Shown piece after piece: positions 5,670 to 61,957 of a stretch of DNA of 64,000 nucleotides. Numbering within the stretch: the first letter of the stretch is position 1; each line of letters begins with the position of its first letter. Location of the stretch: assembly GCA_963781885.1 (NCBI GenBank), contig CAWAHW010000002.1, forward strand, positions 1,152,001 through 1,216,000. The letters are read 5' to 3'. The position numbers and the translations under genes are program-made. The notes beneath the pieces were generated by a model. That model was not told the DNA's origin and ran no database searches. It saw nothing but the letters and a program-made list of their open reading frames with translations. This stretch comes from an uncultured Spirochaetota bacterium (GTDB lineage Bacteria > Spirochaetota > Spirochaetia > SZUA-6 > Fen-1364).

Positions 5670-6131
5670 CTACCGCTTGGCGATACACGACGTTAGCGTA
5701 TGAAGAAGCTCGCAAAGTGGGCGGGAATGAAATGTCCCGTCGATGTCGTCGAAGAAACTCGGCTCTTTCAAATTCGTGGGTGGATTCTCACCCCACCAGA
5801 TCCAGATGAAACCGTGGCTCTCATGGATGGGGTACGAGCAGACATGAAAGCGGTCAGGGACCGGGGCGTCTCTGCCGTTGGCAGGGATCCGAGCACCCCG
5901 GCCACGCGCGTCATATTCGAACCCATGGAAAGGGCACTGGATGCGATCTTCGAGAAGCTTCCCTGCGCTCAGGGCCGCCCCACGGTGCGCGCATCGATCC
6001 CGCAGGCAGAACGCCTTCCCCTCCTGGTCCCGGGCGAACACCAACCGCTCTCCCAGGCGGGTGACGCCCAGCATTTTTCCTCGCTTCACATCCTGCGATC
6101 CGAGGACCACATACCATTGGTTTGGTATCAT
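5670..6131 (-). pseudogene. Truncated Rieske non-heme iron oxygenase alpha subunit (Rieske domain only)
   Basis: 'CAHRGAALS...CPFHG' 2Fe-2S motif; ORF ends about 20 aa after 'FFDDIDG', with no catalytic DxxHxxxxH domain recognised downstream. Confidence 0.75.
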
Positions 6132-6641
6132 TTCGACACTCCCATCGCCTCCGCTCCTGGGGGCGCTTGTCGCGCACGGTATCCAGGAAATCCGGCGTAA
6201 TCGTCTTAACTCCTGCCCCGAGGATCTTCCATTGCGTTTTCTCGATACCATTTCCATCATAGCACACGACCCACGGAGCCGATTCTCCAAGTACCGGCCG
6301 ATGTTTTCCCTCCAGACCCTGTTCGCAAATCTTTGAGAACCGATCGCAGGAACCTTGTCCCACAGCGCAGACGCGGCGGCGGGTTACTTGCGACAACGGC
6401 GATTCATTCGGGCGGTTCGGTGGCGGTGGGGGCCGAATGGGCCGGCAAGCCCACTCTCACGTGTGAAGCATGTCCACCGCTTGCGACGTGCCCGCCAGTA
6501 GCGTACGATCTCCCTCTGAACGTTTGCCGGGCATCGGGGTGCAAACGCGGGGCTCCGAGCAGTAAAACTGTTGCCAAAATGTGCATGAATGGGAGGATCT
6601 TGAAGTTGAGGGCAAAAGATGCGTGCCTATATCACTTCTGT

Positions 6642-10232: not shown

Positions 10233-11018
10233 ATGGCGGAAGAACGATACCTTCTGGAAATCGACGGTCTCACAAAGGACTTCCGGGGGCTTCGCGCCAT
10301 CGAGGACCATACCTTGCGCGTCACCGCCGAGCAGATCCTTGGCGTCATCGGTCCCAACGGAGCCGGCAAGACCACGCTGTTCAATCTCATTACAGGCCTG
10401 TTCCCCCCCACGCGCGGCAGCATCAGGTTTCTTGGTGAGGACCTCGCGCGCCTGCGCCCGGATGCTATTGCGCGGCGGGGCATCGCCCGCACCTTCCAGA
10501 ATATTCGCCTTTTCAGCGCCATGTCCGTCCTCGATAATGTTCGGGCGGCTCAGCAGCTGCATACGCCGCGCAACCCCTTCAGCGTCCTTCTGAGCGCACC
10601 GCCCTTTCTCCGCCGCGAGCGGGAGCTTGCCGACTCTTCGCGCGAGCTCCTGCGCATTTTCGGGCTGGAGCGCTATGAGGAGCGCCCGGCGGGAAGCCTT
10701 CCCTACGGAGACCAGCGGCGGCTGGAGATCGCGCGCGCCCTGGCGACGCGCCCCCGGCTTCTCCTGCTGGACGAGCCAACCGTGGGGATGAACCCGCGCG
10801 AGAGCCAGGACCTCCTGGAGCTGATCATGCGGGTGCGGGAAATGTACCGCCTCTCCATCATGCTCGTTGCTCACGACCTGCGCCTCGTCATGGGGCTGTG
10901 CCACAACATCCAGGTGCTTACCAATGGCAGGTTGATTGCCGAGGGTTCACCCGCGGTCATTCGCAACAATCCGGCGGTGATCGAAGCTTATCTGGGGAAG
11001 GCGCGCGACGGTGCTTGA
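10233..11018 (+). CDS. livG: HAAT (Liv-type) ABC transporter ATP-binding protein
   Basis: 'GPNGAGKTT', 'RTFQNIRLF', 'LPYGDQRRLEIARAL', 'VIEAYLG'. Confidence 0.88.
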   Translation: MAEERYLLEIDGLTKDFRGLRAIEDHTLRVTAEQILGVIGPNGAGKTTLFNLITGLFPPTRGSIRFLGEDLARLRPDAIARRGIARTFQNIRLFSAMSVLDNVRAAQQLHTPRNPFSVLLSAPPFLRRERELADSSRELLRIFGLERYEERPAGSLPYGDQRRLEIARALATRPRLLLLDEPTVGMNPRESQDLLELIMRVREMYRLSIMLVAHDLRLVMGLCHNIQVLTNGRLIAEGSPAVIRNNPAVIEAYLGKARDGA

Positions 11019-11715
11019 GCTGGAGAACGTTTCAGTATCGTATGGAAGCATTCGCGCGCTGAGAGGTGTCAGCCTCACCGTCCGCGAAGGGGAGCTCGTG
11101 ACGCTCATCGGGTCCAATGGAGCAGGCAAGTCGACCTGCCTCCTGGCCATCTCCGGCGTCCTTCACCCGCAGCAGGGCCGCATCATGTACCAGGGACGCG
11201 ACATCACGCGCCTGTCCCCGTTCGAAGTGGTGAGGCGGGGCATCTCCCAGTCCCCGGAAGGTCGGCACGTCTTTGCCCGCCTCAGCGTGGCGGAAAACCT
11301 CATGCTCGGCGCCGGGCAGCGCAAGGACAGGGCAGGGATAGACAAGGACCGCGCGTGGGTGTACGAGCTGTTCCCCGTCCTCCGCGAGCGACTGAGCCAG
11401 GCGGCGGGCACGCTGAGCGGAGGCGAGCAGCAGATGCTCGCCATGGGGCGCGCGCTGATGAGCCGGCCGAAGCTCCTGCTCCTCGACGAGCCATCGCTGG
11501 GCCTTGCGCCCCTCCTGGTGGAGACGATTTTCGACGTCACGCGCAAGGTGCGCGCGGAGGGCGGGACGATCCTGCTGGTGGAACAGAACGCGCGGCAGGC
11601 CCTCGACGTCGCCGACAGGGGATACGTGCTTGAGACGGGACAGATCATACTCGAAGGCGACGCCAGATCGTTGAAGAACGACGCGGGCGTCGAGAAAGCA
11701 TACCTGGGAGGGTAG
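11011..11715 (+). CDS. livF: HAAT (Liv-type) ABC transporter ATP-binding protein
   Basis: 'GSNGAGKST', 'LSGGEQQMLAMGRALM', 'DEPSLGLAP'. Confidence 0.88.
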   Translation: MLELENVSVSYGSIRALRGVSLTVREGELVTLIGSNGAGKSTCLLAISGVLHPQQGRIMYQGRDITRLSPFEVVRRGISQSPEGRHVFARLSVAENLMLGAGQRKDRAGIDKDRAWVYELFPVLRERLSQAAGTLSGGEQQMLAMGRALMSRPKLLLLDEPSLGLAPLLVETIFDVTRKVRAEGGTILLVEQNARQALDVADRGYVLETGQIILEGDARSLKNDAGVEKAYLGG

Positions 11716-11719
11716 GGCG

Positions 11720-12622
11720 ATGCCGGTTCTCCAATACCTGGCGCAGCAGACGATCAATGCCCTCAGCCTGGGCAGCATCTATGCCCTGGTGGCGATCGGG
11801 CTCGCCATGGTCTTCGGCATCCTGCGTCTCATCAATTTCGCCCACGGCGACCTGATGATGGTTGCCTGCTACGCGGCGTTCTTTCTCGTGTCCACCGGCA
11901 TCAGCTTCGCGCCGCTCATCGTCATCACCCTTTTCGCCGCCGCCCTTCTGGGCATGCTCACCGAGCGCGTGGCCTATCGCCCCGTCCGCGGAGCCCCCGA
12001 TGTGGTCATGCTCCTCACGTCCCTCGCGGTCTCCATTTTCATCGAGAACGTTTTCATCATGGTGGTCTCCCCCGTGCCCCGCAGCTTCCGCGCGGTCACC
12101 CCGGCTTTCCTGGACACGGTGCACGCGTGGGCGGGGATGAGCATATCGAACATCAATATCCTCACCGTCGGGGTCACCATCGTGCTGTTCGTCCTCCTCC
12201 TCCTTTTCGTCACGCGCACGCGCGTCGGGGTGGCGATGCGCGCCGTGTCGGAGGACCTCCTGGGCGCCAAGCTCGTGGGCATCAATCTCAACCGCGTCAT
12301 CCTCGCCGCCTTCGCGGTGGGTTCCGCCATGGCCGGCGTGGCGGGGATCCTTTGGGCGGCGCGGTTGGGAAAGATCGATCCCCTCATGGGGTTCATCCCC
12401 CTGCTGAAGGCGTTCGTGGCCGCGGTCATCGGCGGATTCGGCAGTCTTGCCGGCGCCGTGCTCGGCGCGTACGTGCTGGGTTTCGCTGAGATCTTCCTTA
12501 TTGGATTCCTTCCGCCCCAGCTCTCCAGCTATCGCGACGCGTTCGTTTTCCTCCTCCTCATTCTCGTGCTCCTTGTGCGGCCCAACGGGATCCTTGGCTC
12601 CACCGAGAGGGAGAAGGTGTGA
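11720..12622 (+). CDS. livH: HAAT ABC transporter permease
   Basis: 'GSIYALVAIGL...INFAHG', 'KAFVAAVIGGFG'. Confidence 0.88.
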   Translation: MPVLQYLAQQTINALSLGSIYALVAIGLAMVFGILRLINFAHGDLMMVACYAAFFLVSTGISFAPLIVITLFAAALLGMLTERVAYRPVRGAPDVVMLLTSLAVSIFIENVFIMVVSPVPRSFRAVTPAFLDTVHAWAGMSISNINILTVGVTIVLFVLLLLFVTRTRVGVAMRAVSEDLLGAKLVGINLNRVILAAFAVGSAMAGVAGILWAARLGKIDPLMGFIPLLKAFVAAVIGGFGSLAGAVLGAYVLGFAEIFLIGFLPPQLSSYRDAFVFLLLILVLLVRPNGILGSTEREKV

Positions 12623-13713
12623 TGGCGGAGCCCTCTTCTTCCCTCCCGCTCCGTCTCCTCCCCGCGCTCGTCATGCTGGCGGTGCTCGCGATCTTCGTCC
12701 TGCTCGTCAATGCTTTCGCCAGCGCCTACATCGCGCGCATCGTCGTCCTTCTGGGCATCAGCATCATCCTCGTGGTCAGTCTCAACCTTTCCAACGGGTT
12801 CACCGGTGTCTTCTCCCTCGGGCACGTTGGCTTCATGGCCATCGGCGCCTATGTCTCTTCCATTCTCACCCTCACGCTCGAGACGAAAGCCCAGAATCTC
12901 CCGGACCTGCCGGCGTGGATCGCGCACGTCCAGATGGGATTCCTGCCCGCGATGCTGCTGGGCGGTCTCATCGCGGGCGTCATTGCATTCCTCATTGGCA
13001 TCCCCCTCATGCGTCTCAGCGGCCACTACGTGAGCGTGGCCACCCTGGGGTTCCTGGTGATCGTGCATATCGTGCTTGTCAACTGGACGCAGTTCACGCG
13101 GGGCGCGCGCACCTTCTCCGGGGTGCCCGCCTATACGACTATCTGGTGGGTCTACGGATGGCTTGCCATCACCGTCTACCTCGTGTGGCGCGTCGTCCAT
13201 TCCCCCTACGGCCGCGCCATGCTCGCCGTGCGGGAGAATGAAATCGCCGCCCAGGCCATCGGCGTCAACATCCTGCGCTCCCGCATCCTCGCCTTCGTTC
13301 TGAGCGGCTTCCTCACGGGGATCGCCGGCGCCCTCTGGGCGCACAAGGTGACATCATTCTCTCCCGCGTCGTTCTATTTCACGCAGACCTTCAACATCAT
13401 CATCATGCTCGTCGTCGGAGGCATGGGAAGCATCAGCGGCTCAGTCTTGGGGACCGTGCTTGTAACGGCACTCTCCGAGCTTCTGCGCAATGCCGAGCTG
13501 GGAATCCGCGTCGGTCCGGTCCAGATTCCCCCCCTGTACGGGCTGTCGCAGATCGTCCTCGCCGTGGCGTTTGTTCTGGTGGTCGTCTTGAGCCGCAAGG
13601 GACTGATGGGGGACCGGGAGATCGACTGGCGGCAACTTGCAAGGTTCCGGGCCAGGGGGCCGGAAGAAGGGAGGAGCGAGGGGCAGAACGGGCCCGACCA
13701 GCCATCCGAGTGA
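12622..13713 (+). CDS. livM: HAAT ABC transporter permease
   Basis: 'GFTGVFSLGHVGFMAIGAY', 'SPYGRAMLAVRENE'. Confidence 0.88.
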   Translation: MAEPSSSLPLRLLPALVMLAVLAIFVLLVNAFASAYIARIVVLLGISIILVVSLNLSNGFTGVFSLGHVGFMAIGAYVSSILTLTLETKAQNLPDLPAWIAHVQMGFLPAMLLGGLIAGVIAFLIGIPLMRLSGHYVSVATLGFLVIVHIVLVNWTQFTRGARTFSGVPAYTTIWWVYGWLAITVYLVWRVVHSPYGRAMLAVRENEIAAQAIGVNILRSRILAFVLSGFLTGIAGALWAHKVTSFSPASFYFTQTFNIIIMLVVGGMGSISGSVLGTVLVTALSELLRNAELGIRVGPVQIPPLYGLSQIVLAVAFVLVVVLSRKGLMGDREIDWRQLARFRARGPEEGRSEGQNGPDQPSE

Positions 13714-23572: not shown

Positions 23573-24043
23573 TCAGAGCCAGAAGCGGAGCCCCAGGGCG
23601 CCCTGGACGTGCCAGCTGAACGCCGTGGGAATGAAAGAGACGCCCACCGCGGGGGCAGCTTCAACGAATATCTCCAGAGTCTTTCCAAAGGGCCAGATCT
23701 GGAGGCCGATCGGAACTCTGCCGCCAACGCTGACGTCGACTGGCGAAACGTCGACGGATGCATAGCCGCCGACCCCGACGTACCAGTCGAAAATGCTCAC
23801 GATATTGCCATGGGCTATCCAATAGTCTGCCGTGACGCCAATGGAGAGCGGAAAGGTCACCCCGATGCCGAGCATCAAAGGGAATTGCGGCAGCTTCAAG
23901 GTGAGCATCGCGCCGGACGGGAGCCCCCCTGTTCCTGCAAAATATAGCGCGCCTTCGCCGCCGATGGCGAAATTGCCCGCGGCAAAAGCGGCGGTCGATA
24001 CGCCGATGAGAGCAATCAGGACCAGGATCAGAATCTTCTTCAT
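23573..24043 (-). CDS. DUF3996/BAPKO_0422-like small outer-membrane beta-barrel protein
   Basis: Signal peptide; 'WYVGVGGY', 'GRVPIGLQ', 'EIFVEAAP', terminal 'GLRFWL'. Confidence 0.75.
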   Translation of the reverse strand: MKKILILVLIALIGVSTAAFAAGNFAIGGEGALYFAGTGGLPSGAMLTLKLPQFPLMLGIGVTFPLSIGVTADYWIAHGNIVSIFDWYVGVGGYASVDVSPVDVSVGGRVPIGLQIWPFGKTLEIFVEAAPAVGVSFIPTAFSWHVQGALGLRFWL

Positions 24044-24180
24044 TCTCCCCCCTTGGTTGAAAGTTATCCCGTCTCCGAACTATGCACAACGGCCCGGTGC
24101 GGGCATCCATTGCTGCTCAATCGCGGCGTCATTTTCTCCGATACTCTCATGAGGGGAGATATGCTCTCCGCGAGGAACCC

Positions 24181-24477
24181 ATGGATTGGAAAGAGCAGCT
24201 GACGACGGATGAGGGGGAGCTTCGGGCACTCGTGGAAAGGCTGGGCGCCGCCCGCAGCGGAGGACTGCACGGCCGCGCGGAACGTCAGTGTGCCTCGCGC
24301 TCGCTGAATGCAAAGCTTTCATCCATGCACGCGTATGTCCAGGATTTCCTGAGCGGACGCAACGAGCAGGAGCGCGCGACGCTTGAATACCGTCTGCGCG
24401 TGGAGTACCCGCTTTACTCCCATCTCACCTCGCTCTCCCATTTGCCGCGTGAATACGTGGAATGGGCCTGCACGTGA
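24181..24477 (+). CDS. Hypothetical protein
   Basis: GAGGA RBS; helical, charged 98-aa ORF. Confidence 0.6.
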   Translation: MDWKEQLTTDEGELRALVERLGAARSGGLHGRAERQCASRSLNAKLSSMHAYVQDFLSGRNEQERATLEYRLRVEYPLYSHLTSLSHLPREYVEWACT

Positions 24478-24526
24478 GGCAAGGCACAATACCCGCGCAA
24501 GTGCTGTGAAACCTTCTGATTGATGC

Positions 24527-24552
24527 GTCAGGGTGCGTGGAAGCACCCTGAC
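24527..24552. terminator. Hairpin between convergent small genes
   Basis: GTCAGGGTGC-N6-GCACCCTGAC, perfect 10-bp stem; no U-tract. Confidence 0.5.
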
Positions 24553-24575
24553 CGTCAGGTCGCTCCGTCCGACCC

Positions 24576-24767
24576 TTATGCGAAAAGATCTACTTTTGTG
24601 GCCACGCCCTGCGGGTTGATTTGCTGCGCCGAAACAGGCTTCGCCGCAAGCTTCACGGCGTCATCGGAGTCACCGTCCGACTCCCGCTCTCCCGCGACCT
24701 CTTTCGAGGGCTGGGAGGCGATCGCTGTAGACCACTGGTTCTGGGTCATTGATGCATCAATGCGCAT
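24576..24767 (-). CDS. Small hypothetical protein (63 aa)
   Basis: AAAGGA RBS; AT-rich promoter TTGCAA-N16-TATGCT upstream; C-terminus 'GVATKVDLFA'. Confidence 0.7.
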   Translation of the reverse strand: MRIDASMTQNQWSTAIASQPSKEVAGERESDGDSDDAVKLAAKPVSAQQINPQGVATKVDLFA

Positions 24768-24920
24768 AGTATTCCTTTCTCTATATATAGCATAACGAAT
24801 ATCTATTCGATTGCAAGGGCAAAATGACGGCCATTTGACCGACCGGCTTTCGCGGCATTATTTTCCGCGCAGGATGCAGAGCGCAGCCCGAAGCACGCCG
24901 CGGGAAGCGTCCTGACGGCG

Positions 24921-24964
24921 GTCGCCGATCTTTCGACGTGGGCGCCGTCGCCGATCTTTCGACG
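24921..24964. repeat. Two exact 18-bp direct repeats GTCGCCGATCTTTCGACG
   Basis: Copies at 24921-24938 and 24947-24964 (period 26). Confidence 0.8.
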
Positions 24965-25074
24965 CCGGGTCGACGCCGTCAAAGCGACGGCAAGGACCCG
25001 TCCTTGCGAAATCAATCGACGCACAGGGATTCGGGGGATTATCTTTTTCGGCGCGGGGAAAGGAGGGCGATTCG

Positions 25075-25723
25075 GTGAGGTCTTTCTTGAAGGCCAGACC
25101 TGTCGTGACCGCCGCGTTTCTTACCATTCTCCTGGGAGGGTGCGCTACCATGTCTGAAGGCAAGGATAACATATCATTCGTCGTTTCCACGACAGCGGTG
25201 CAGGGGGCGCCTGAAACCGGCTTTGACAGCGGCCTTGTGTCCGTGGGTCGGCTGAATGCCATCTTCGGTGCAAAAGCGCGCGGGCCAGCCAATCCGCGCT
25301 CGTTTCCGTTCACCTGGAAGGGGCTTCCCAGGGGGACAAAGGCCATCGCGGTCGTCCTTGACGACCCCGACGCGCGGCTGGTCCTTGCCGCGAACGGAAT
25401 GACCGGTGATGCGTTCCTGCACTGGATCGCGGCTGACATCGATCCTGCCGCGGGCGGTCTGCCGGACAACGCCGCCGCGACGATGCCCATCACGCAGGGA
25501 AAGAATGGCACGGGACAGGCCCGTCTACACGGCGCCGCAGCCGCCGGCCGACGTCCCCAAGGACACCGACAAGGTGCGCATCCATGTCTATCGGCTGAAG
25601 GTGTACGCGCTTTCGGCGCCGACGGGTCTCAAGACCGGGTTCAGCCTTGATGACCTGATGTCCGCAATCAAGGGCACGACACTCGGGATGGCGCAGCTCA
25701 ACGTGAGCTACAGCAACCAGTAG
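25075..25723 (+). CDS. YbhB/YbcL (PEBP/Raf-kinase-inhibitor-like) lipoprotein (frameshift near 25520)
   Basis: Lipobox 'LGGC'; 'AVVLDDPDA', 'FLHW'; then 'YTAPQPP...HVYRLKVYAL' in the next frame. Confidence 0.8.
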
Positions 25724-25726
25724 GCC

Positions 25727-26146
25727 GTGGAAAAGGATCCATCGCTCCTTCCGGGAATGCCCGGAAACCCGTGGCGATTGCGGACATCCGACGGGAGCGT
25801 CGAATATGCGGCATTCAGGGACACCAGGATAGCGCCTGCCGCGCTGGTGGTGAAGGTGGGCGCCCGGGAGAGACGCTACAACCTGCGCTGCCTGGAGGAT
25901 CTGCACGAGATGCTGAAGGCGCATGGCGACTGGGTTCCTCTGGGCCGCGCCGGTGAGCACGAGCAGCCGCCCGCGGGCAGCGTCGAGGCATGGGCTCGCT
26001 CCCGACAGAACCCCGTGGGCGGCTGGTATGGGTTATCGAAGGGCCAGCGGGGGGATTTTGCCGCCTTCATTCCCCCCATCCTGCAGGAGCTGAATCTCGC
26101 GGAGCTGGAAGGAAAAGCCCCCGACCTGCTCATGCGCGCGGTCTAG
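25727..26146 (+). CDS. Conserved hypothetical protein (DUF6855-like)
   Basis: 'PWRLRT', 'LHEMLKAHGDWVPLG', 'VEAWARS..NPVGGWYG'. Confidence 0.7.
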   Translation: MEKDPSLLPGMPGNPWRLRTSDGSVEYAAFRDTRIAPAALVVKVGARERRYNLRCLEDLHEMLKAHGDWVPLGRAGEHEQPPAGSVEAWARSRQNPVGGWYGLSKGQRGDFAAFIPPILQELNLAELEGKAPDLLMRAV

Positions 26147-26199
26147 AAGGTTTTCAAGCTCGCAGATGCCGAGAGCCGTGGCCGCCTCCGGATCGGGCG

Positions 26200-26388
26200 C
26201 TACCGCGTCCTCAGGTAGTTCTCCACGGACCGGTCATAGCCGCGTTCCGCGGCCTTGGAGAAGTAGCAGGCCGGCAATTCCCCTGCGCCCCGATGATAGG
26301 CGACACACTCGCAACACACCCCTTTCCTGCTGCACGTGTACGTGCAGTTGCAGGAAGCCTTGTTCGATTCGATTTTGCAGGCTTGCAT
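26200..26388 (-). CDS. Small Cys-rich protein (DUF6485-like)
   Basis: '[20 protein letters not shown]...LPACYF...YDRS'. Confidence 0.8.
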
Positions 26389-26547
26389 GCTCAACTCCAT
26401 GATACATCTGCGTCGTTGCCGGAGCCGGGATGATAGCATGGGTGAAGGAGCGCCGCCACAGGACGGCGACGATGCGTCTCCGCTCCTCATGACGATCCAC
26501 AAAAAATGTGCTACCATGGGCCCATACCAGCGTTCAGGAGGCGACGA

Positions 26548-28290
26548 TTGTCAAAGAGGGTATTCGCACTCTTTTTTTCTCTCGTGACGGTTGCCGTCGT
26601 GTACGCCGTCCCGCCGACGTACCTGCTCACCACGGGCTCGCTCCTGTCGCAGACGAGCTTCGGCCTCTTCACGAATTCCTTTGACGCTGCATTCAATGAA
26701 AGCGACGCCGGCACGCTCCCCACCTTCTCAACGCTGACGCAGTCGTACCTCTTCACCGGCCTGGCGAACGATTTCTCCGGGAATGTCGGCACGGTGCCGC
26801 TCACCCCTTTCACATTCGGGTATTACGGACCCGGCCCGAAGGCCTGGTCTTTGCTGGGGGACGTCGTCCTGCAAACGGCCAACTCCACGCTGAGCGACGG
26901 CACCGTCGTCACATCTGCCGCGAAGACGGTGGGCGCTTCGAGCATGAGCTGGGCCACACAGAGCGCGCAGTCCACCTACCAGTTCCTCGATGCATGGAAT
27001 GCGGCGGGAAACGAGCAATTCCTGATGAAACTTGGCAGCCTCAATCTCGGGGCGCTTCTCAACTGGTACTACACGCAGAATACCTCAGGAGCCGGTGCGA
27101 ACGCTTTCGCCGCCGCGAATGTGAATCAAACGACCACGTTCAATTATGACACCTCGGGGCTCGGTGTCGCCCCTGCGCCGGCGCTGAACTACACCGAAAG
27201 CGTCTCTCTGTCGAAGCCCGATGGGACTCTGGACATCGGGCTCACCGTGCCGCTGTACTTCAAGGTCGGGTCCATCGGTTTCGACGTTGCGCCGAAGGTG
27301 GAATACAACCGCTACGATGCTTCGATCACGGACACCATCAGCTACACTCCACCGCAGCGGGCGCTGGCCGGCAACTTCCCGATCGCGACAGGAGCACTGA
27401 ACACGACGACGGACGTCACCGGTTTTGTGACCACGGCCTTGTCGTCAACGGCGAGCCTGCCTTCACTGGCGGCGGGAAACGCAAACAATCTTTTCGAGGT
27501 GAACCTCGACGGGTACCTCACCTTCTACACGGCCGATCCGCTGCATGTCGTGAAAAATGGCGCGGAGCAGTGGAACTACGCCGGCGGCGGGGCGGGATTC
27601 ACCTACCCGGTTGGCCTCGTCGCGCCGGGCGCCGTAAACCAAACCGACACGACAACGACGCGTGGCGCGGGGATCGCTTATCGCGTCGCCCCGTCCGCAC
27701 AGCAGAAGATGTACTTCGACCTGGGTGAAGGGTCGTCATGGGCTATCGGGCCGAAGGTCGACCTCGAGCTGAACTATGCGCCAATTTCGGATGTCTACAG
27801 AACGCAGATCACGCAAATAGCCAGCACCGACGGCGACGGCAATGGAAAATTCACGGATGCGGCGGACCAGATCGTGACCACCGTCACCACGTACAATCAC
27901 AACAACGAAGGCGGAACCTGGAACGTGATCGGCGGCATCGAGCTTCCTGTTGCCCTGACATTCCGTCCTTCGGCAGGCTTCTTCGGTGTCACGGTCGGTG
28001 CGAATCCGCGTCTCCTGTACACGCTCACCGTTGTCAGCAGCACGCCGGAAACGTTCAGCCAGACAATCAGCGCAACGGATGGAACGGGCGCCGCGATTGC
28101 GGCGCCGGGAGGCATCACCTCCGTCACCGCGGGAACGGCGGACCCGGTCACAAGGACGAACTCTGCGTGGACATTCGATTCCGGATTCGAGCTTTCTTTC
28201 GATTTCTATCTCCCCGCGGATACCACGCTCCACATCATGTGGTCGGGCGCGGGCAACCTCTCCTTCCAGGGGACTCTGTCGCTGAAATAG
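26548..28290 (+). CDS. Hypothetical Thr-rich exported, probably outer-membrane protein
   Basis: AGGAGG RBS with TTG start; signal peptide; beta-strand-rich; 580 aa. Confidence 0.75.
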
Positions 28291-45572: not shown

Positions 45573-45646
45573 GGGCGGCTAGCTCAGCTGGTTAGAGCGA
45601 TTGGTTTACACCCAATAGGTCGGGGGTCCGAATCCCTCGCCGCCCA
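45573..45646 (+). tRNA. tRNA-Val(TAC)
   Basis: Acceptor stem GGGCGGC/GCCGCCC; D-arm GCTC...GAGC; anticodon arm ATTGG-TTTACAC-CCAAT; CCA not encoded. Confidence 0.95.
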
Positions 45647-48986: not shown

Positions 48987-49382
48987 TCAGGTCTGCAACG
49001 CGAGCCCCATCATGCCAATGTAGGCGAGATTCGCCTGCGTGACATCCATCCTGCCGTACTGGATGACCACATCGATGTCGCTCTGGAACCGAAGCGCGTA
49101 CTGCGTCCGACGGGGGATCTGGATGCCGCCGATCTCGGCGGGATGGTCCATCCTCAAGCAGGTGATCCGTCTGGCTGCGACGGTGAGAGGGACGCCGGTT
49201 TGCGGCTCCCTGTCCTGGAAATACACGTCCATAAGAACGTTGGCCGGCCGGTCGTGACAGTTGAGAATCATGATCGCCTCGTGTCCTTCATAGCCCGAGT
49301 CGAGCTCCGGGTTTTGAGTCGGCATCCAGCCGTCGGCGACAAACCATGTCTTCGCGCCGTTCCGTTGTTCAGCGGTCATCAC
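48987..49382 (-). CDS. Anabaena sensory rhodopsin transducer (ASRT)-family protein
   Basis: 'W.VADG..P', 'HEAI.ILN', 'YFQDREP', 'V.ARR', 'SD..VV.QY.R.D..Q'. Confidence 0.85.
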   Translation of the reverse strand: MMTAEQRNGAKTWFVADGWMPTQNPELDSGYEGHEAIMILNCHDRPANVLMDVYFQDREPQTGVPLTVAARRITCLRMDHPAEIGGIQIPRRTQYALRFQSDIDVVIQYGRMDVTQANLAYIGMMGLALQT

Positions 49383-55280: not shown

Positions 55281-56500
55281 CTACCGGTACTCCTTCCACG
55301 CGTCCACAAAGTGCCGCACATTGCCCCGGACACGATCCGATGCGTCGTAGATGCCGTCCACCGGTGAGAGAATGAAGCCGTTGTCGGGTGCAAGCATCTC
55401 CATCGTGCTCTTCACCGTTCCGCGGATGAGCTCCGGCGTCCCCGCCTCCACGGTCATCGATCCGTTCACGCCGCCCCACAGGCACAGGCGGCCTTTTGCT
55501 TTCGCCTTCGTCGCGCGAAGATCGTAGCCTCCCTGGACCGGATCCACGCCGATCAGCGCGTCCACGCCCGCCTCGATTATCATGTCGAGCAGGGGCATTG
55601 CGCCCGCGGTCATGATGTAGCCGAACTTGACGCTGCGTGCGTGCGCGGCTTCCACCTCGCGCTTCAGGTGTGGAAGGATGAAGCGGCGATACAATGCGGG
55701 CGACCAGAAATCGCATCCCTCGTACCAGCCGCGGCGTATCCAAAGATCGATGCCTTCATCCAGCACGACCTTCATCCGGGCCAGATTCCAGTCCGCGATC
55801 ATGTGAAAGAGCTCTTCCACGAATGCGGGCCGATCGGCGGTGAGGAAGACGAGCTCCTGGAGACCGCAGAGCCATGCCGCCATGTCGGCCAGGACGCCCC
55901 ACTGGTAGACGCGCAGGAGGTCCTTTTCCCGGGCGATGCCCTGATTGGTTTCCGACGATAAGCGAAAATGCGCGACCGTCTCGGCATCCGGCGGCTGGAG
56001 GAGGTAGGCGAGCGCCTTCATGTCCGAAGGCTGGGTGACCAGCATTTTCGTGGCGCGCGCAATAATGAAGTCATCGACGAAAAGAAGGTGATCGCCGTAA
56101 GGCCAATCCTCCGTCTGGTTGGCGGAAACAGTGAGCGGCCCTCGCAGGAGTCAGGTATTCACGATGGAGAACGGGATACCTCGCGCCCGGGGCGCTCTCA
56201 CGCCATTCGCGGAGCGGTGACGTCGGGGTGGGCGTGCACCGGCATGCCGCGGAGGGTGACATTGACCTTGCCAGGATAGTCGAGCTGGTAGCCGCGCAGG
56301 TCACGGGGATCTCCCGGCCGGCTCACCGACCAGGAGGGAATGTCGACCAGAGGGTCGAGACCCATATCGGCCTGGGCGGAGACAAGGTTTGTCTCACCCG
56401 GATGCCACTCGTCGAGACCGTGCAGCAGCATGAAGCAGCAGGGCGCATAGTCCACCGGCTCGCAGGATAGGGCGTGCAGCATGCGCGCGCGTGATGACAT
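55281..56500 (-). CDS. Uroporphyrinogen decarboxylase/MtaA-like family protein (frameshifts near 56210 and 56145)
   Basis: 'MSSRARMLHAL..EPVDY.P', 'REYLTPA', 'WSPALYRRFILP', 'LWGGVN', 'GFILSP'. Confidence 0.78.
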
Positions 56501-56574
56501 GGACACTCGCCGTCTCCTCTCGTGTGAGGGGAGGGTATCGTCGAACAGGTGGAGAAGCAAGTGCCGGCGCGCGA

Positions 56575-57390: not shown

Positions 57391-57822
57391 GTGAACCTCC
57401 TGATGGACCCCGATTGATTATCGGATTTTTCGCTCAGAGGTGCTCACCTTCGACGAGTTGTATCACCGTGAGCGGCGTTCCGATGATGCCGCGGACGCAT
57501 TCGGACCGCAGGAATGTTCCGTCGCCCGTCCGATACCAGCACACGGAGCGCCAGAGGAACGATACGAGCCCGGTGAGGCTCACGTCCAGTTTCTCCGCCT
57601 CATGGGTCCCGCACAAAGATACCGCGAAGCCCGGGCGTCGGACAGGAAAACCCAAGGGTGGGCGCGGCCCGCATATTCCGCGCGCCGCCAGGGGGGAAAT
57701 GCACTGACCTCACTGAAAATTAACGGACTCTTTATAGAGTGCTAACACTCGACCCGCACCGTCATACACGAGAGTCGTTAGGCTCTCTCCATTCATTTCG
57801 CGTGAAGAGATAGGAGGAATTG

Positions 57823-58869
57823 ATGAAGCGCTTCATAACCCTCGCGGTTGCGCTGGCGATTATGGTCGCGGCGGCCGCGTCCGTTGCTGCCCAGTCCACG
57901 CTCGAGATCGGCGGCTGGGGCTATTACACCGACGTGACGGGTGCCTACGCAAATGGTCTGCTCGATACTGCGGGCAACTCGGTCTTCAACGAAACGAAGG
58001 CGGGCGGGACCCAAACCGACAAGTACGCACCGACCGTCCAGCCCTATGCGAGCTACGTCTTCACCCAGAAGCTGGATACCATCAGCCTGAAGTACGGTCT
58101 GTACGCCGAAGACTGGCTTGGCCTCTACTCCGGCACGCTTGCTCCGTACGAGTTCCAGATGGCCGGCAAGGTGGAGCCGTCCGCCGAGCTTCTGATGGGC
58201 GGTCTCGATCTCAAGGCGAGCTTCCCGCTCGTGTTCTTCTCTCCACAGGATGCCAGCGGCATCAACGAGCTGAAGTACGCCTACAAGCCTTACAGCTACG
58301 GATACTTCAACGACTCGACGACACCCGACTACACGCAGAGTTTCTGGGTCGCCAACTATCTGAAGGCCACCTACAAGATCTCTTTCGACAAGACCACCGC
58401 GCTCGTTCTTGGCGCTGAGGGAGACATCGGCTTCACCCCCGTGTTCACCCTTTTCGACGTGAAGCCTCAGTTCAGCTTCATCCTCGGGCCCGCTCAGCTC
58501 GATGCGAAAGCGGCAATGTACTTCAACGACAACGCGGCCAACGGCGGCGCCAACGGCGCAAACGATCTCTATCTGTACATCGAGCCCAAGCTGACCGTTG
58601 ATTTCGGAAGCCTTGGCCTGAACGGCTTCAAGGCCTTCGTGGCAGGCCGCATTGCGACGTACACGACCGCAACCAAGTACACCGCCGCGGCGCCCTGGCA
58701 CGACACGTGGCTCAACCCCGGCGTGAGCTACAAGATCGGCGGGCTCTATTTCGAAGGCGACTTCAAGTGGAACAAGATCGGCTCCGACGCGGCAAGCGAC
58801 ACGAACGACAAGGGAGTCGTTCCCTACTTCGAACCCCAGCTGAAGGTCTCCTATACCCTGTCCTTCTAG
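57823..58869 (+). CDS. Hypothetical outer-membrane beta-barrel protein, probably abundant
   Basis: AGGAGG RBS; signal peptide; aromatic-rich beta strands; terminal 'YTLSF'; strong codon bias. Confidence 0.78.
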   Translation: MKRFITLAVALAIMVAAAASVAAQSTLEIGGWGYYTDVTGAYANGLLDTAGNSVFNETKAGGTQTDKYAPTVQPYASYVFTQKLDTISLKYGLYAEDWLGLYSGTLAPYEFQMAGKVEPSAELLMGGLDLKASFPLVFFSPQDASGINELKYAYKPYSYGYFNDSTTPDYTQSFWVANYLKATYKISFDKTTALVLGAEGDIGFTPVFTLFDVKPQFSFILGPAQLDAKAAMYFNDNAANGGANGANDLYLYIEPKLTVDFGSLGLNGFKAFVAGRIATYTTATKYTAAAPWHDTWLNPGVSYKIGGLYFEGDFKWNKIGSDAASDTNDKGVVPYFEPQLKVSYTLSF

Positions 58870-58882
58870 TTCCCCACAAAGG

Positions 58883-58912
58883 AAGGCGCCCTGCGAAAGC
58901 AGGGCGCCTTTT
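58883..58912 (+). terminator. Intrinsic terminator
   Basis: AAGGCGCCCTGC-GAAA-GCAGGGCGCCTT followed by TT. Confidence 0.8.
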
Positions 58913-59012
58913 GCGTATGGCGTGCGCCGTCCGGTTGAATGGATGTTTTGGCGGTCGACGGAATCGCCTCCGCGCTTCCCGTTTAAGCTCTGAGCCGGCG
59001 GCGCCCTTTCGG

Positions 59013-59978
59013 TCAGGCAGCCGGCTTTTTCAAGGGTCCTTTCTCCTGCCGCTCGTACCAGTCGCGCCAGATGATCCGGTAGATCGGGATCCATCGAGGC
59101 AGGTGTTTCAGTACGGGAATAAAAGGCGCGAATAAGAGAAGGAGGAAGAAGACGATCATCAGCGACCCGACTATCACGTCGGCGTTGGGAGCGGTCGTGA
59201 GAGGGGGGATCTGGTACCAGATCGCATACGGCCAGAGCCACCAGGGTCCCGGCAGGTTGCCCACCTCATGCGTGATGCCCCACTGCGTCCCCAGCATGTC
59301 GAAACCGTCGGCGACGTTCTGGTCGACGTCCTCCTGGAAGAAAAGCATCGCCTTTGTATTGTCCAGCGTGTACGGGAGCCTGTCATTGCTGGTGAGGGCG
59401 CCTTCCAGAAGCCCCGCGCGGCCCAGCGCGAGCATGCCCAGCATCATGACGGGCACGGGTCCATATTCTCCCGTTGGAACCTTGACCTGGCCGTTCGACT
59501 CCTCCGCCTTGTCCAGCGCGTCGCTGTACGCCTTGGCCCACGCCTTCTGCTGGTCCTCTTTCGCCGCGCCCCACACCTTCAGGGCTGCATCGACGTCCTT
59601 GTTGAGCATCGCCACCTTCTGCAACGGCGCAATGACGAGGTCCTGCTCCGCATCGAGCGGCATTGTAACGCCCAGCACGGTCGCAGGCCCCGGGCCCAGG
59701 ATGCGCTGGATGTTGTCGGTGTCCTTCGTGTAGGGGGGACCGTAGGTCTGCAGAGCACTCTCACCGGAAAGGAAGTCAGTGGCCGTTTTCAGGAAATCGA
59801 GCGGATGATTCGTCGCCACGTCTTCGCCGCGAACCGTTGGGGCGTCCGGTGATTTGAGGACAATGGCGAGCGCGACGACGACGACCGCCACGATTCCCAA
59901 AGCAATGAGGCCTTCCCGCACCAGGTCATACGGCTTCATCGGGACCCCGCTCAGGTATGCATCCGACCTGCGGCTCAT
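59013..59978 (-). CDS. Membrane-anchored protein coupled to cytochrome b (expanded subunit-IV-like)
   Basis: N-terminal TM helix; about 210-aa soluble domain; 'PGPWWLWPYAIWYQIPP'; TM helix 'LLLLFAPFIP'; ATGA overlap. Confidence 0.75.
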   Translation of the reverse strand: MSRRSDAYLSGVPMKPYDLVREGLIALGIVAVVVVALAIVLKSPDAPTVRGEDVATNHPLDFLKTATDFLSGESALQTYGPPYTKDTDNIQRILGPGPATVLGVTMPLDAEQDLVIAPLQKVAMLNKDVDAALKVWGAAKEDQQKAWAKAYSDALDKAEESNGQVKVPTGEYGPVPVMMLGMLALGRAGLLEGALTSNDRLPYTLDNTKAMLFFQEDVDQNVADGFDMLGTQWGITHEVGNLPGPWWLWPYAIWYQIPPLTTAPNADVIVGSLMIVFFLLLLFAPFIPVLKHLPRWIPIYRIIWRDWYERQEKGPLKKPAA

Positions 59979-60580
59979 TTTTTCACCTCCCCGCGGGCAG
60001 GGTAGGGTTTCACCGGCCCTTCATGCCGGATGAAAAGGATGTGGACCGCGACAAGGATGATGACGACAGCCGGGAAGACCGCCACGTGGAGAGTGAGGAC
60101 CTGGCCGTAGTTGGTGGTTGCGAAGAATCCCCCGACGCCCATGGCATTCATCGCATCCTTTGCCTCAACGGCGTGCCACTGGGAGGACCAGTTCGACGCC
60201 GACAGATAGCCGGTGAATCCGCTGAATATCGCCGCGCCAAGCGTGAGCACGCCGACCATCCAGGTCTTCCACCTGCCGTCGCGGAATGCGCCCAGGAAAT
60301 ACTTCGTCGCCAGGTGGAGCACCATGAAGCCGAAGAAGAGCTGGACGGACCAGAAGTGAAAGGAATTGAAGAGCTTGCCGGTGGCGCGGATGTGGTACCA
60401 CCCCGGGCCAAATATCGCCATGATCAGCCCGGTGAGAACGATCATGACCAGGGAGCAGAGGGTGAAGACGCCGAAAAGGTATGCGAGCGAATTGACGTAG
60501 ACGGGAAGCTTCGTCGGGAGGGCGTCGTCGAGCGTGAGCTTATCCTTCACGAAGCCCTGCATTCTCTCCGTGATGCTCAT
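59975..60580 (-). CDS. Cytochrome b N-terminal (b6-like) diheme protein
   Basis: Four TM helices; His pairs H-x13-H and H-x14-H; 'W..G', 'FTGYL'. Confidence 0.88.
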   Translation of the reverse strand: MSITERMQGFVKDKLTLDDALPTKLPVYVNSLAYLFGVFTLCSLVMIVLTGLIMAIFGPGWYHIRATGKLFNSFHFWSVQLFFGFMVLHLATKYFLGAFRDGRWKTWMVGVLTLGAAIFSGFTGYLSASNWSSQWHAVEAKDAMNAMGVGGFFATTNYGQVLTLHVAVFPAVVIILVAVHILFIRHEGPVKPYPARGEVKK

Positions 60581-60762
60581 TTCTTCCTCCCTTTCTGGCT
60601 CTCGCGGCCGCGCTCGATCCATTTCGGAAGGCGCGCCCACGCAGCGAGGAAAAAGACGGCGATCAGTATCGCCCCGATGATGACGTTCGGAATGGACCAA
60701 TCGAAGATGAGAAACCTGATGTGATGCACGGCAGGCACGAGCTGCGAACCGACTCCTTCCAT
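60577..60762 (-). CDS. Small single-TM protein (61 aa)
   Basis: AGGAGGTG RBS; hydrophobic core; ATGA overlap with the cytochrome b gene. Confidence 0.78.
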   Translation of the reverse strand: MEGVGSQLVPAVHHIRFLIFDWSIPNVIIGAILIAVFFLAAWARLPKWIERGRESQKGRKK

Positions 60763-61000
60763 CGATCACCTCCTGATCAGGATAAGGATTCGGATCCGTC
60801 TTGCGTCGCTCGAGCACGTCTCCGTGCGCCCGTGGGGAATCAGGCGGCTTCCACAGACCGCGGATCGCTCTCCAAACATAACGACGGCGGGCACGCCAGA
60901 GCAATGAAAATTCCTCCCCTGGCGCGAAAATTCTTGCTTCAACACGCCGCCGCTCTTATCTTCCAGTGAACCGGCCGTAGGCCGGGCAAGGAGGAGAGAG

Positions 61001-61363
61001 ATGCCGCGGACCATTCACTTCGAGATTCCCAGCGCCAATCCGGCGCGTGCAGTCGAGTTCTACAAGAAGGCGTTCGGCTGGAAGATCAAGCAGTGGGGCA
61101 AGGAGCCGTACTGGATGATCACGACCGGCAAGGCGCCGGAGCCGGGCATCGATGGCGCCATCATGCCGAAGAAAGACCTGAAGACAACCGTGAATACCGT
61201 CGGCGTGCCATCGGTGGACAAGGCGCTGAAGAAGATACTGGCGATCGGTGGGAAGGTGGTTCGGCCGAAGATCGCCATCCCCATGATGGGCTGGATCGCC
61301 TATTGCGCGGACCCGGACGGGAATGTGTTCGGCATCATCGAGATGGATGAGGCAGCGGGATAG
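61001..61363 (+). CDS. VOC/glyoxalase-family protein
   Basis: 'HFEI', 'FYKKAFGW', 'GIDGAI', 'DPDGNVFGI'. Confidence 0.9.
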   Translation: MPRTIHFEIPSANPARAVEFYKKAFGWKIKQWGKEPYWMITTGKAPEPGIDGAIMPKKDLKTTVNTVGVPSVDKALKKILAIGGKVVRPKIAIPMMGWIAYCADPDGNVFGIIEMDEAAG

Positions 61364-61423: not shown

Positions 61424-61816
61424 TCAGCCCAGGATGCCTTCACCGTGCGTCAGGCGGTATCTCCCCGCGCCGATGAAGAACACGACGAGCGCAGCGAGAA
61501 AGTAGAAGGCCTCGACCTCGAGACCCCAGGCGCCCGAGCGCTGGAGGACGAAAGCGTTGCGGTGGGCAACCAGAAGCACCGCCATGATCATATTGAAAGC
61601 GACAACGAGCGACGCCAGACGCGACCAGAGCCCAAATATCAGGAAGACTGGTGCGACGACCTCACCGATGTAGACCCCATAGGCGACGAATCCCGGAAGA
61701 TGATAAGCCGCCAAAGCAGGGCCGAACGGAACCCCGTGGATGATCTTGGAGATTCCATGAAAAAGCAGAAGCCCGCCTATCATCAGGCGGAGCAATAACT
61801 TGCCGACGTCTTCCAT
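61424..61816 (-). CDS. DoxX-family membrane protein
   Basis: 'LLLRLMIGGLLLFHGISK', 'GEVVAP', 'GAGRY'. Confidence 0.9.
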   Translation of the reverse strand: MEDVGKLLLRLMIGGLLLFHGISKIIHGVPFGPALAAYHLPGFVAYGVYIGEVVAPVFLIFGLWSRLASLVVAFNMIMAVLLVAHRNAFVLQRSGAWGLEVEAFYFLAALVVFFIGAGRYRLTHGEGILG

Positions 61817-61957
61817 GCGTATTCCTCCTTGCATCTACCGCAAAGCTATGAGGCGGCCTTTCGAGCGTCAAGGTTTCGCGGAAATGATCTTTCAAGACGC
61901 GAAAGGGAAAAATCCGCGGTGGTGCGCCGCTGCCGCCCGGGCGCCAGGTCGTTGTTG

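Follow-up and report, generated by a model that had tools for sequence, protein, structure and literature searches.

A Rieske/cytochrome b complex is, by definition, a cytochrome b paired with a Rieske protein. What, then, is encoded by an operon that has a cytochrome b6-like core and no Rieske gene? The question is raised by three genes in a 64,000-nucleotide stretch of contig CAWAHW010000002.1 (assembly GCA_963781885.1) from an uncultured Spirochaetota bacterium; the whole stretch is referred to below as the window. In gene order they encode a 61-residue protein with one membrane helix (the small subunit), a 201-residue cytochrome, and a 321-residue partner protein (Table 1). A preliminary description, made from the letters alone, had proposed three genes of these sizes coupled by ATGA overlaps, and the sequence and the list of open reading frames (ORFs) agree on this arrangement, with overlaps read from the sequence at both junctions (GAAATGAGC and AAAATGAGC). 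The module recurs across many phyla, almost always without a nearby Rieske gene, and is therefore likely to be a membrane electron-transfer complex of a kind not yet described. On a modest balance of probability, we regard it as a self-contained, Rieske-independent, quinone-linked two-heme membrane complex, built from the cytochrome b6/subunit IV core and having neither a Rieske protein nor a c-type cytochrome.

The longest ORF over the cytochrome gene runs for 309 residues from a TTG; the 201-residue form starts at the ATG at 60580, and its length fits that of relatives, which mostly have 197–208 residues. Pfam models PF13631 (5.6e-13, 49.6 bits against a cut-off of 27) and PF00033 (5.4e-08, 33.3 bits against 27.2) both match. 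Judged by sequence, the protein is a member of the cytochrome b/b6 N-terminal domain superfamily and belongs to no named subfamily: the NCBIfam rows for ExtP, cytochrome b6, actinobacterial QcrB, and SoxC all lie far below their cut-offs. The cytochrome b6 model NF002990 gives 47.7 bits against a cut-off of 325. The top row, ExtP (the b-type cytochrome of a selenite/tellurite reduction operon), reaches 52.3 bits against 290, so the window cytochrome is not an ExtP member. The top match among sequences of solved structures is cytochrome b6 of the Chlamydomonas b6f complex (1q90_B, E = 1.8e-09).

All 57 aligned relatives keep H63, H75, H89, H165, H180, G37, G51, R100, R103, K141, D142, and R185. 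The heme histidines form two pairs, H75/H89 in helix B (13 residues between) and H165/H180 in helix D (14 between), which align to the b6 ligands in 1q90_B. The b6-like character, the four heme histidines, and the helix D spacing claimed in the preliminary description are thereby borne out. G37 and G51, 14 residues apart on helix A, are presumably the heme-packing glycines. In the same alignment R185, five residues past the last heme histidine, falls on the b6 arginine of the IRKQG stretch. The third-heme cysteine of b6f (in the CxGG stretch of 1q90_B) aligns to an invariant tyrosine, Y34, the window reading Y-L-F-G at this point; two hemes are therefore expected, not three.

Of 401 stretches that matched the search patterns, 227, in species genomes, code for a relative; the 80 best of these served as the related loci. 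A tblastn comparison found the cytochrome immediately before the partner in 78 of the 80, and the small gene upstream in 73. Loci with no detected cytochrome or small gene are on cut or fragmentary contigs, or have small proteins that are too diverged. With heuristic start calls, a 4-base overlap joins cytochrome and partner genes in 44 of 74 loci and small and cytochrome genes in 42 of 72. A tree of 71 full-length partners bears 11 phylum labels and for the most part groups members of a phylum together, with 12 changes of label where 10 would be the fewest possible. A protein from a fen Spirochaetaceae bin is 94% identical to the window's protein. Carrier groups include Spirochaetota, Chloroflexota, Actinomycetota, and Gemmatimonadota; Sulfuriferula multivorans and Oricola nitratireducens are among the cultured carriers, and one annotation in the former calls the partner "apocytochrome b".

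The Rieske and cytochrome c subunits were sought by ORF, Pfam, and pattern scans. None of the 259 window ORFs of at least 80 residues contains CxxCH or a bc-type Rieske motif, and the pattern scan of these ORFs gave only one Rieske-like motif. The Pfam scan, which covered 53 of 65 greedy candidate ORFs (the rest were short, had a low third-position guanine plus cytosine (G+C) content, were overlapping shadows, or were scanned separately), found one Rieske domain and no cytochrome c. The domain (1.6e-24) lies in a 206-residue ORF at 5670–6290 (−) with CAHRG...CPFH, which we take to be an oxygenase-type motif, and no catalytic domain follows it; the protein may be a truncated or stand-alone Rieske ferredoxin. 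As a candidate for the module's absent subunit it was rejected, being 53 kb away and lacking the extra cysteine pair of bc-type Rieske proteins. These scans agree with the earlier statement that the module has no Rieske or cytochrome c subunit.

For the related loci, the Rieske counts cover ±10 kb around each module; Rieske genes elsewhere in those genomes are outside that scope. The preliminary description had named the regular presence of a Rieske and cytochrome c partner in homologous operons as one result that would speak against it; a bc-type motif was found in one of 78 loci (L028) and was absent from 77, so the description was not refuted on this point. A loose Rieske pattern retrieved 14 ORFs, two of which look genuine, that of L028 and an oxygenase-type one 6 kb from the module in L078; the other 12 were rejected as chance matches by eye, without a Pfam scan. 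ORFs with several heme motifs were seen in just two of these loci, L034 (13 motifs, on the opposite strand at a distance of 1.5 kb) and L070 (8 motifs, at 8.6 kb). Neighbors were also clustered: 4458 ORFs gave 81 clusters present in at least three loci, and among the 54 representatives scanned (short and shadow ORFs were left out) none was a Rieske protein or a cytochrome c.

Could the module nevertheless be an ordinary Rieske/cytochrome b complex that runs a normal Q-cycle with a Rieske protein and a c-type cytochrome encoded elsewhere in the genome? Rieske genes do not always stand beside cytochrome b genes, according to a phylogenomic study of cytochrome bc complexes (PMC5600118). In L028, a Calditrichaceae bin, a bc-type Rieske gene begins 14 bp past the partner gene and opens a canonical operon (10962–13402), the sole such case among the 78 loci. 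This Rieske protein (CPHLGC...CPCH; Pfam 4e-12) is followed by a long cytochrome b with PEWD, partly masked in the record and joined in one chain with a di-heme cytochrome c, so the Rieske protein has a partner of its own. The absence of bc-type motifs within ±10 kb in the other loci, the replacement of the PEWY glutamate by an invariant glycine, and the absence of helix G from the partner also argue against this explanation. The same is true of the conserved insert of the partner, predicted to cover the loop where we presume that a Rieske head would dock (cytochrome residues 128–160), and of the single-chain form of the module in Actinomycetota, to which no Rieske domain has been added in the listed proteins. 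We consider an ordinary complex quite unlikely.

The place that a Rieske gene would take is occupied. Among eight canonical cytochrome b loci, six of them annotated, the Rieske gene is directly upstream in five of the six, including Sulfurovum, Sinorhizobium, Haloferax, Deinococcus, and Fulvitalea. Set against these, the module has the small-subunit gene in that position, as had been noticed from the sequence. The small subunit consists of a short N-terminal tail with His14, a single membrane helix, and a basic C-terminus (RLPKW..RGRESQKGRKK). H14 is present in 40 of 44 aligned sequences, and R44 and P46 in all 44. Pfam gave no match, and the sole NCBIfam row (E = 0.025) is far under its cut-off. 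The motifs RLPKW (60619–60633) in the small subunit and HLPRW (59089–59103) in the partner both follow a membrane helix. MAFFT aligned the small subunit with the second helix of the partner; an origin by duplication of that helix was rejected, since hhalign gave only E = 0.018 over nine columns.

The partner has no cysteine, no CxxCH, and no conserved histidine or methionine. Its two hydrophobic segments lie within residues 17–49 and 262–294, and PGPWWLWPY (243–251) and PFIP (285–288) were located where the preliminary description implied. An AlphaFold2 (AF2) model (mean predicted local distance difference test score (pLDDT) of 79.3) has two long membrane helices around an all-α domain. The soluble insert between the helices, put earlier at about 210 residues, is present and slightly smaller, at about 195–200. 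Conserved motifs within it are YGPPY, GLLEGAL, LLFFQ, and QWG..E.G. Four residues, P243, G244, W247, and Y255, are the same in all 41 partner sequences, and the C-terminus is an amphipathic WRDWY tail. Homologue searches returned 623 proteins at E ≤ 0.001, of which all that bear a name are "hypothetical protein", and 688 matches among 50%-identity representatives. The partner has no Pfam match at E ≤ 0.1 and no NCBIfam match; its profile retrieved only chance rows among sequences of solved structures (E = 0.52 and 0.83), tblastn against plasmids gave no match, and the nearest clusters in the ESM Atlas are the partner family itself, with no Pfam family.

Likeness of the partner to subunit IV was examined with a reference profile of eight canonical long cytochromes b from annotated plasmid-collection records. 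Under a permissive alignment setting, a profile of the fused form of the module, from an alignment built without the small proteins (which MAFFT had placed on the partner's second helix), matched these eight with a probability of 99.1% (E = 1.6e-18), and the match continued through helix E. With the partner alone, residues 6–45 matched canonical residues 230–272, comprising the stretch before helix E and helix E itself (hhalign P = 0.026, probability 1.9%, reversed control 0.18), and residues 242–288 matched canonical residues 287–333, comprising PEWY, the ef helix, and helix F (P = 0.0019, probability 14.2%, reversed control 0.013). BLASTP of the partner against the canonical cytochrome b of L028 gave the same match, ungapped over 39 residues (E = 0.003). 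A homologue search with the C-terminal piece of that canonical cytochrome b brought up 35 candidates, none significant. Both segments are colinear with the canonical order, and the insert had no match to the canonical profile (P = 0.51). In the fused-profile and segment alignments the partner's P16-Y17-D18..E22 falls on the P-x-x-x-K-D stretch that precedes helix E and that we take to line the Qi site in canonical enzymes.

Natural fusions show the same order in one polypeptide. P0124 (554 residues) joins the cytochrome to the partner and belongs to a lineage separate from the triple fusions, of which P0134 (639 residues) comprises the small subunit, cytochrome, and partner in gene order; an equivalent of His14 is present there too. 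Triple fusions of about 630 residues occur in Actinomycetota. They are common: of 8000 proteins scored, 3135 reached E ≤ 0.001. The best 120 have 579–663 residues, the named ones are from Streptosporangiaceae, and they are labeled "cytochrome b N-terminal domain-containing protein". The listed fused proteins bear the N-terminal models PF13631 or PF00033 only. An AF2 model of a triple fusion (pLDDT 82.3, predicted template modeling score 0.81) has seven membrane helices, with a pLDDT of about 65 in the small-subunit part. A fold search with this model gave 59 matches at E ≤ 0.001, the best being long cytochromes b of bc1/bcc complexes (9gy6_B, 3.4e-07; 2fyn_A, 1.3e-06).

Complex prediction pairs the cytochrome with the partner at a score of 0.88, against 0.00 for the best of three controls. 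Of 157 solved complexes 116 scored as high, as did 2 of 215 mismatched pairs; these counts hold only roughly here, where custom alignments were used and two hemes were included in the run. At least 93% of contacts are common to the runs, and the partner pLDDT is at least 86. In the predicted complex, partner helix 1 touches cytochrome residues 42–46 and 73–81 (helices A and B), helix 2 touches residues 108–115 of helix C, and many insert residues, those of conserved motifs included, touch residues 128–160, the presumed Rieske docking loop, and H63. Position, fusion, profile comparison, and predicted binding thus agree in pointing to a subunit IV-like partner, none of these lines being strong alone.

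Taken as a Rieske-independent complex, the module would work as follows. The cytochrome would hold two b hemes stacked across the membrane, and the partner would provide the equivalents of helices E and F. The loop between its helices would have grown into an all-α domain of about 195 residues, capping the outer (p) face of the cytochrome where the Rieske head docks in canonical enzymes, and the small protein would be a third, single-helix subunit. The whole would be a non-bifurcating, quinone-linked transmembrane electron wire, in which the hemes of the n and p sides link a Qi-type quinone site at the cytoplasmic (n) face with a remodeled, capped p-side pocket. Gene order, conservation, heme ligands, and natural fusions can be read from the sequences themselves; that the subunits bind, where the cap sits, the link to quinone, and which reaction runs on the p side and in which direction are inferred.

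A different use of the p side is suggested by H63, a residue of the cytochrome that is at the partner interface in the predicted complex. Here a third cofactor, heme or metal, would sit on His63 and His14 in place of the Rieske cluster; such a site could take one electron from quinol or feed a periplasmic acceptor, giving either bifurcation or electron export as in cytochrome b561. The conservation of both histidines (57 of 57 and 40 of 44 sequences) fits this idea, as do their predicted p-side positions, H63 after helix A and H14 ahead of a helix with a basic C-terminus, and the histidine in the small-subunit part of the triple fusion. That part of the fusion model is only moderately confident, however, the partner offers no conserved histidine, cysteine, or methionine to help hold a cofactor, and the conserved histidines may be purely structural. 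We rate a third cofactor as unlikely. A broader proposal, which we hold to be less likely than not, is that the module represents a widespread and hitherto undescribed Rieske-independent class of cytochrome b complexes, whose PEWY loop has grown into a periplasmic cap and whose p-side His63 and His14 site has a chemistry of its own.

Several observations weigh against the two-heme wire and its subunit IV-like partner. The hhalign probabilities are weak (1.9%, 14.2%, 6.5%, and 12.4%), and the reversed control of the C-terminal segment still reaches P = 0.013. BLASTP and hhalign place the PEWY equivalent two residues apart. An invariant Gly stands where PEWY has its Glu, and the PWGQ stretch of the cd1 helix is replaced, so the p-side quinone site is uncertain. 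A third membrane helix (G) is absent, the partner having two hydrophobic segments and only two long model helices, and the Pfam profile for the C-terminal domain of cytochrome b, presumably PF00032 for the subunit IV family, gave no match to the partner at E ≤ 0.1. A fold search with the partner model alone returned no match at E ≤ 0.001 (best E = 1.2). The fusion model gave TM-scores of 0.32–0.52 by target length with a root-mean-square deviation of about 20 Å, values that the four-helix bundle alone could yield, and resemblance to solved b6f/bc1 complexes may have contributed to the complex prediction. The L028 module directly precedes a complete Rieske and long cytochrome b-c operon. No p-side redox cofactor or substrate has been identified for the module, and the same quinone species at both sites would leave the reaction with no gain. 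The earlier claim that the partner resembles subunit IV is supported in part: the downstream coupling, fusion order, predicted binding, and weak but colinear helix E and F matches are in its favor; the weak statistics and the lack of helix G and of a Pfam or lone-fold match count on the other side.

The quinone link was considered in the light of gene neighborhoods. A UbiE-type methyltransferase gene is within 2.4 kb of the module in seven loci and overlaps the partner stop codon in two (L071 and L076), a UbiA-type prenyltransferase gene lies 8–65 bp downstream on the same strand in three (L033, L036, and L053), and a polyprenyl synthetase gene is near the module in four. Loci with adjoining quinone (menaquinone-type) biosynthesis genes are found in three clades that lie apart in the partner tree. 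Conserved n-side residues, P16-Y17-D18..E22 of the partner and R185 of the cytochrome, also speak for the link. On the other side of the balance, 71 of 78 loci have no quinone biosynthesis gene nearby. Under the broader proposal above, the adjacent UbiE genes suggest as one possibility that the complex functions as an energy-conserving loop between two quinone pools, for example demethylmenaquinone and menaquinone. Alternatively, quinol might drive the reduction of an acceptor, periplasmic or humic, in peat and soil anaerobes.

The quinone genes would also suit a role in quinone handling, and the module might have no redox-enzyme role at all, being a quinone- or heme-handling, assembly, or sensing device on a cytochrome-like scaffold. 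No substrate or acceptor has been identified, and the neighbors are heterogeneous: apart from the module and shadow ORFs in frames that overlap it, the cluster that recurs most often, a generic ABC ATPase, is present in 22 of 80 loci, and the others reach at most nine. All four heme ligands and the heme-packing glycines are, however, strictly invariant across 11 phyla, because of which we expect both hemes to be functional, and Pfam and NCBIfam scans detected no transporter or sensor domain. We judge a purely non-redox role highly improbable.

How does a two-heme electron wire of the proposed kind compare with known systems? With the PetB/PetD core of b6f the module shares a split four-helix, two-heme cytochrome with 13- and 14-residue histidine spacings and a b6 chain as its closest solved match. 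It also shares the gene order of cytochrome then partner, the conserved arginine, and a separate downstream protein that would supply the helix after the bundle and a P-x-W-type loop. Unlike b6f, it has no nearby genes for a Rieske protein, cytochrome f, or the small Pet subunits, and an invariant tyrosine replaces the third-heme cysteine. Unlike PetD, the partner has two helices instead of three, an insert of about 195 residues between them, P-G-P/A-W for PEWY, and no Pfam C-terminal match. The actinomycete fusion has the same domain order as the long cytochromes b of bc1/bcc complexes (mycobacterial and Rhodobacter), which its model matches best; unlike in these systems, a tiny membrane-protein gene takes the place of the Rieske gene, and helices G and H are absent. 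NarI of nitrate reductase and the cytochrome b561-type proteins are two-heme wires of other folds, which transfer single electrons between a quinone site and the opposite membrane face. The analogy with these is functional only, their folds being unrelated, and neither sequence nor fold comparison matched them here.

Literature searches found no description of the module, and the accessible parts of PMC5600118 and PMC4122944 contain no two-helix partner with a large loop insert and no 61-residue subunit. The former describes cytochrome b subfamilies K and H "with obscure function" that have no Rieske protein, and calls the origin of subunit IV obscure (PMC5600118). In the latter, an actinobacterial cytochrome b branch is fused to a non-Rieske FeS protein, with no Rieske protein in the cluster, an arrangement of a different kind from the module (PMC4122944). 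Two of the module's three proteins have no family assignment. If our reading is correct, the module would show what a cytochrome b6/subunit IV core can do alone, and it could be either a side branch of the Q-cycle machinery that has survived or a form resembling its precursor. Metabolic models of abundant uncultured soil and peat bacteria would also gain an electron-transfer route that has gone unrecognized.

Table 1. Coordinates of the module and associated elements in the window
Feature	Position	Strand	Basis or remark
Small subunit gene, 61 residues	60577..60762	−	ORF list
Cytochrome b6-type gene, 201 residues	59975..60580	−	ORF list and Pfam
Partner gene, 321 residues	59013..59978	−	ORF list
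Shine-Dalgarno-like AGGAGGTG	60767..60774	−	4 bases 5′ of the small subunit ATG; read from sequence
Small subunit His14 codon	60721–60723	−	Near-invariant His; predicted outer (p) side
Cytochrome His63 codon, fifth invariant His	60392..60394	−	Loop after helix A, outer (p) side; non-canonical as heme ligand; 57/57
Partner membrane helix 1 (residues ~24–42), putative helix E equivalent	59853..59909	−	Model helix 19–41; preceded by invariant P16-Y17-D18...E22-G23
Partner soluble all-α insert, ~195 residues (~45–240)	59259..59846	−	AF2 model; predicted outer (p) side
Putative PEWY-equivalent loop P243-G244-P245-W246-W247-L248-W249-P250-Y251...Y255-Q256	59211..59252	−	Alignment to PEWY and ef helix
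Partner membrane helix 2 (residues ~266–290) ending PFIP, putative helix F equivalent	59109..59183	−	Model helix 266–282
G+C-rich hairpin, probable two-way terminator	58875..58915		Between module and convergent porin-like gene

The limits of the operon can be drawn from its surroundings. RNA folding of 58875–59012 gave −63 kcal/mol (z = −3.58) and a terminal hairpin of 17 pairs with a U-rich stretch behind it; this strong hairpin separates the operon from a convergent porin-like gene, and therefore the unit consists of the three genes. A simple terminator scan did not list the hairpin, and a scan for consensus promoters and terminators was uninformative (1 and 4 sites, where 0.5 and 2.4 were expected). 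The convergent gene (57820–58869, +) encodes 349 residues with a signal-peptide-like N-terminus, a Tyr/Gly/Phe-rich, β-barrel-like composition, and a final F. It has no Pfam or NCBIfam match; from its composition, the protein is probably an outer-membrane porin whose gene shares the hairpin with the module. The nearest upstream genes are a divergent glyoxalase-family gene (61001–61363, +) and then a DoxX-family membrane protein gene (61424–61834, −). A glyoxalase-family gene is just upstream of the module in nine spirochete loci, and DoxD/DoxX genes lie within 4–6 kb in three Chloroflexota loci. Rfam and tRNA scans of the window found nothing near the module and a single tRNA-Val at 45573–45646.

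Elsewhere in the window, about 4 kb at 23600–27700 contain short ORFs only, all without a Pfam match; several have a third-position G+C of 0.46–0.53, against 0.7–0.85 elsewhere. At 55281–56560 (−), adjacent same-strand ORFs of 254 and 120 residues may represent one gene split by a frameshift or a mis-called start, the larger matching only positions 162–346 of the 346-position URO-D profile. A 131-residue protein of the Anabaena sensory-rhodopsin-transducer family (PF07100, 4.1e-33) is encoded at 48987–49382 (−), flanked by a peptidase gene and an operon for a sugar ABC transporter.

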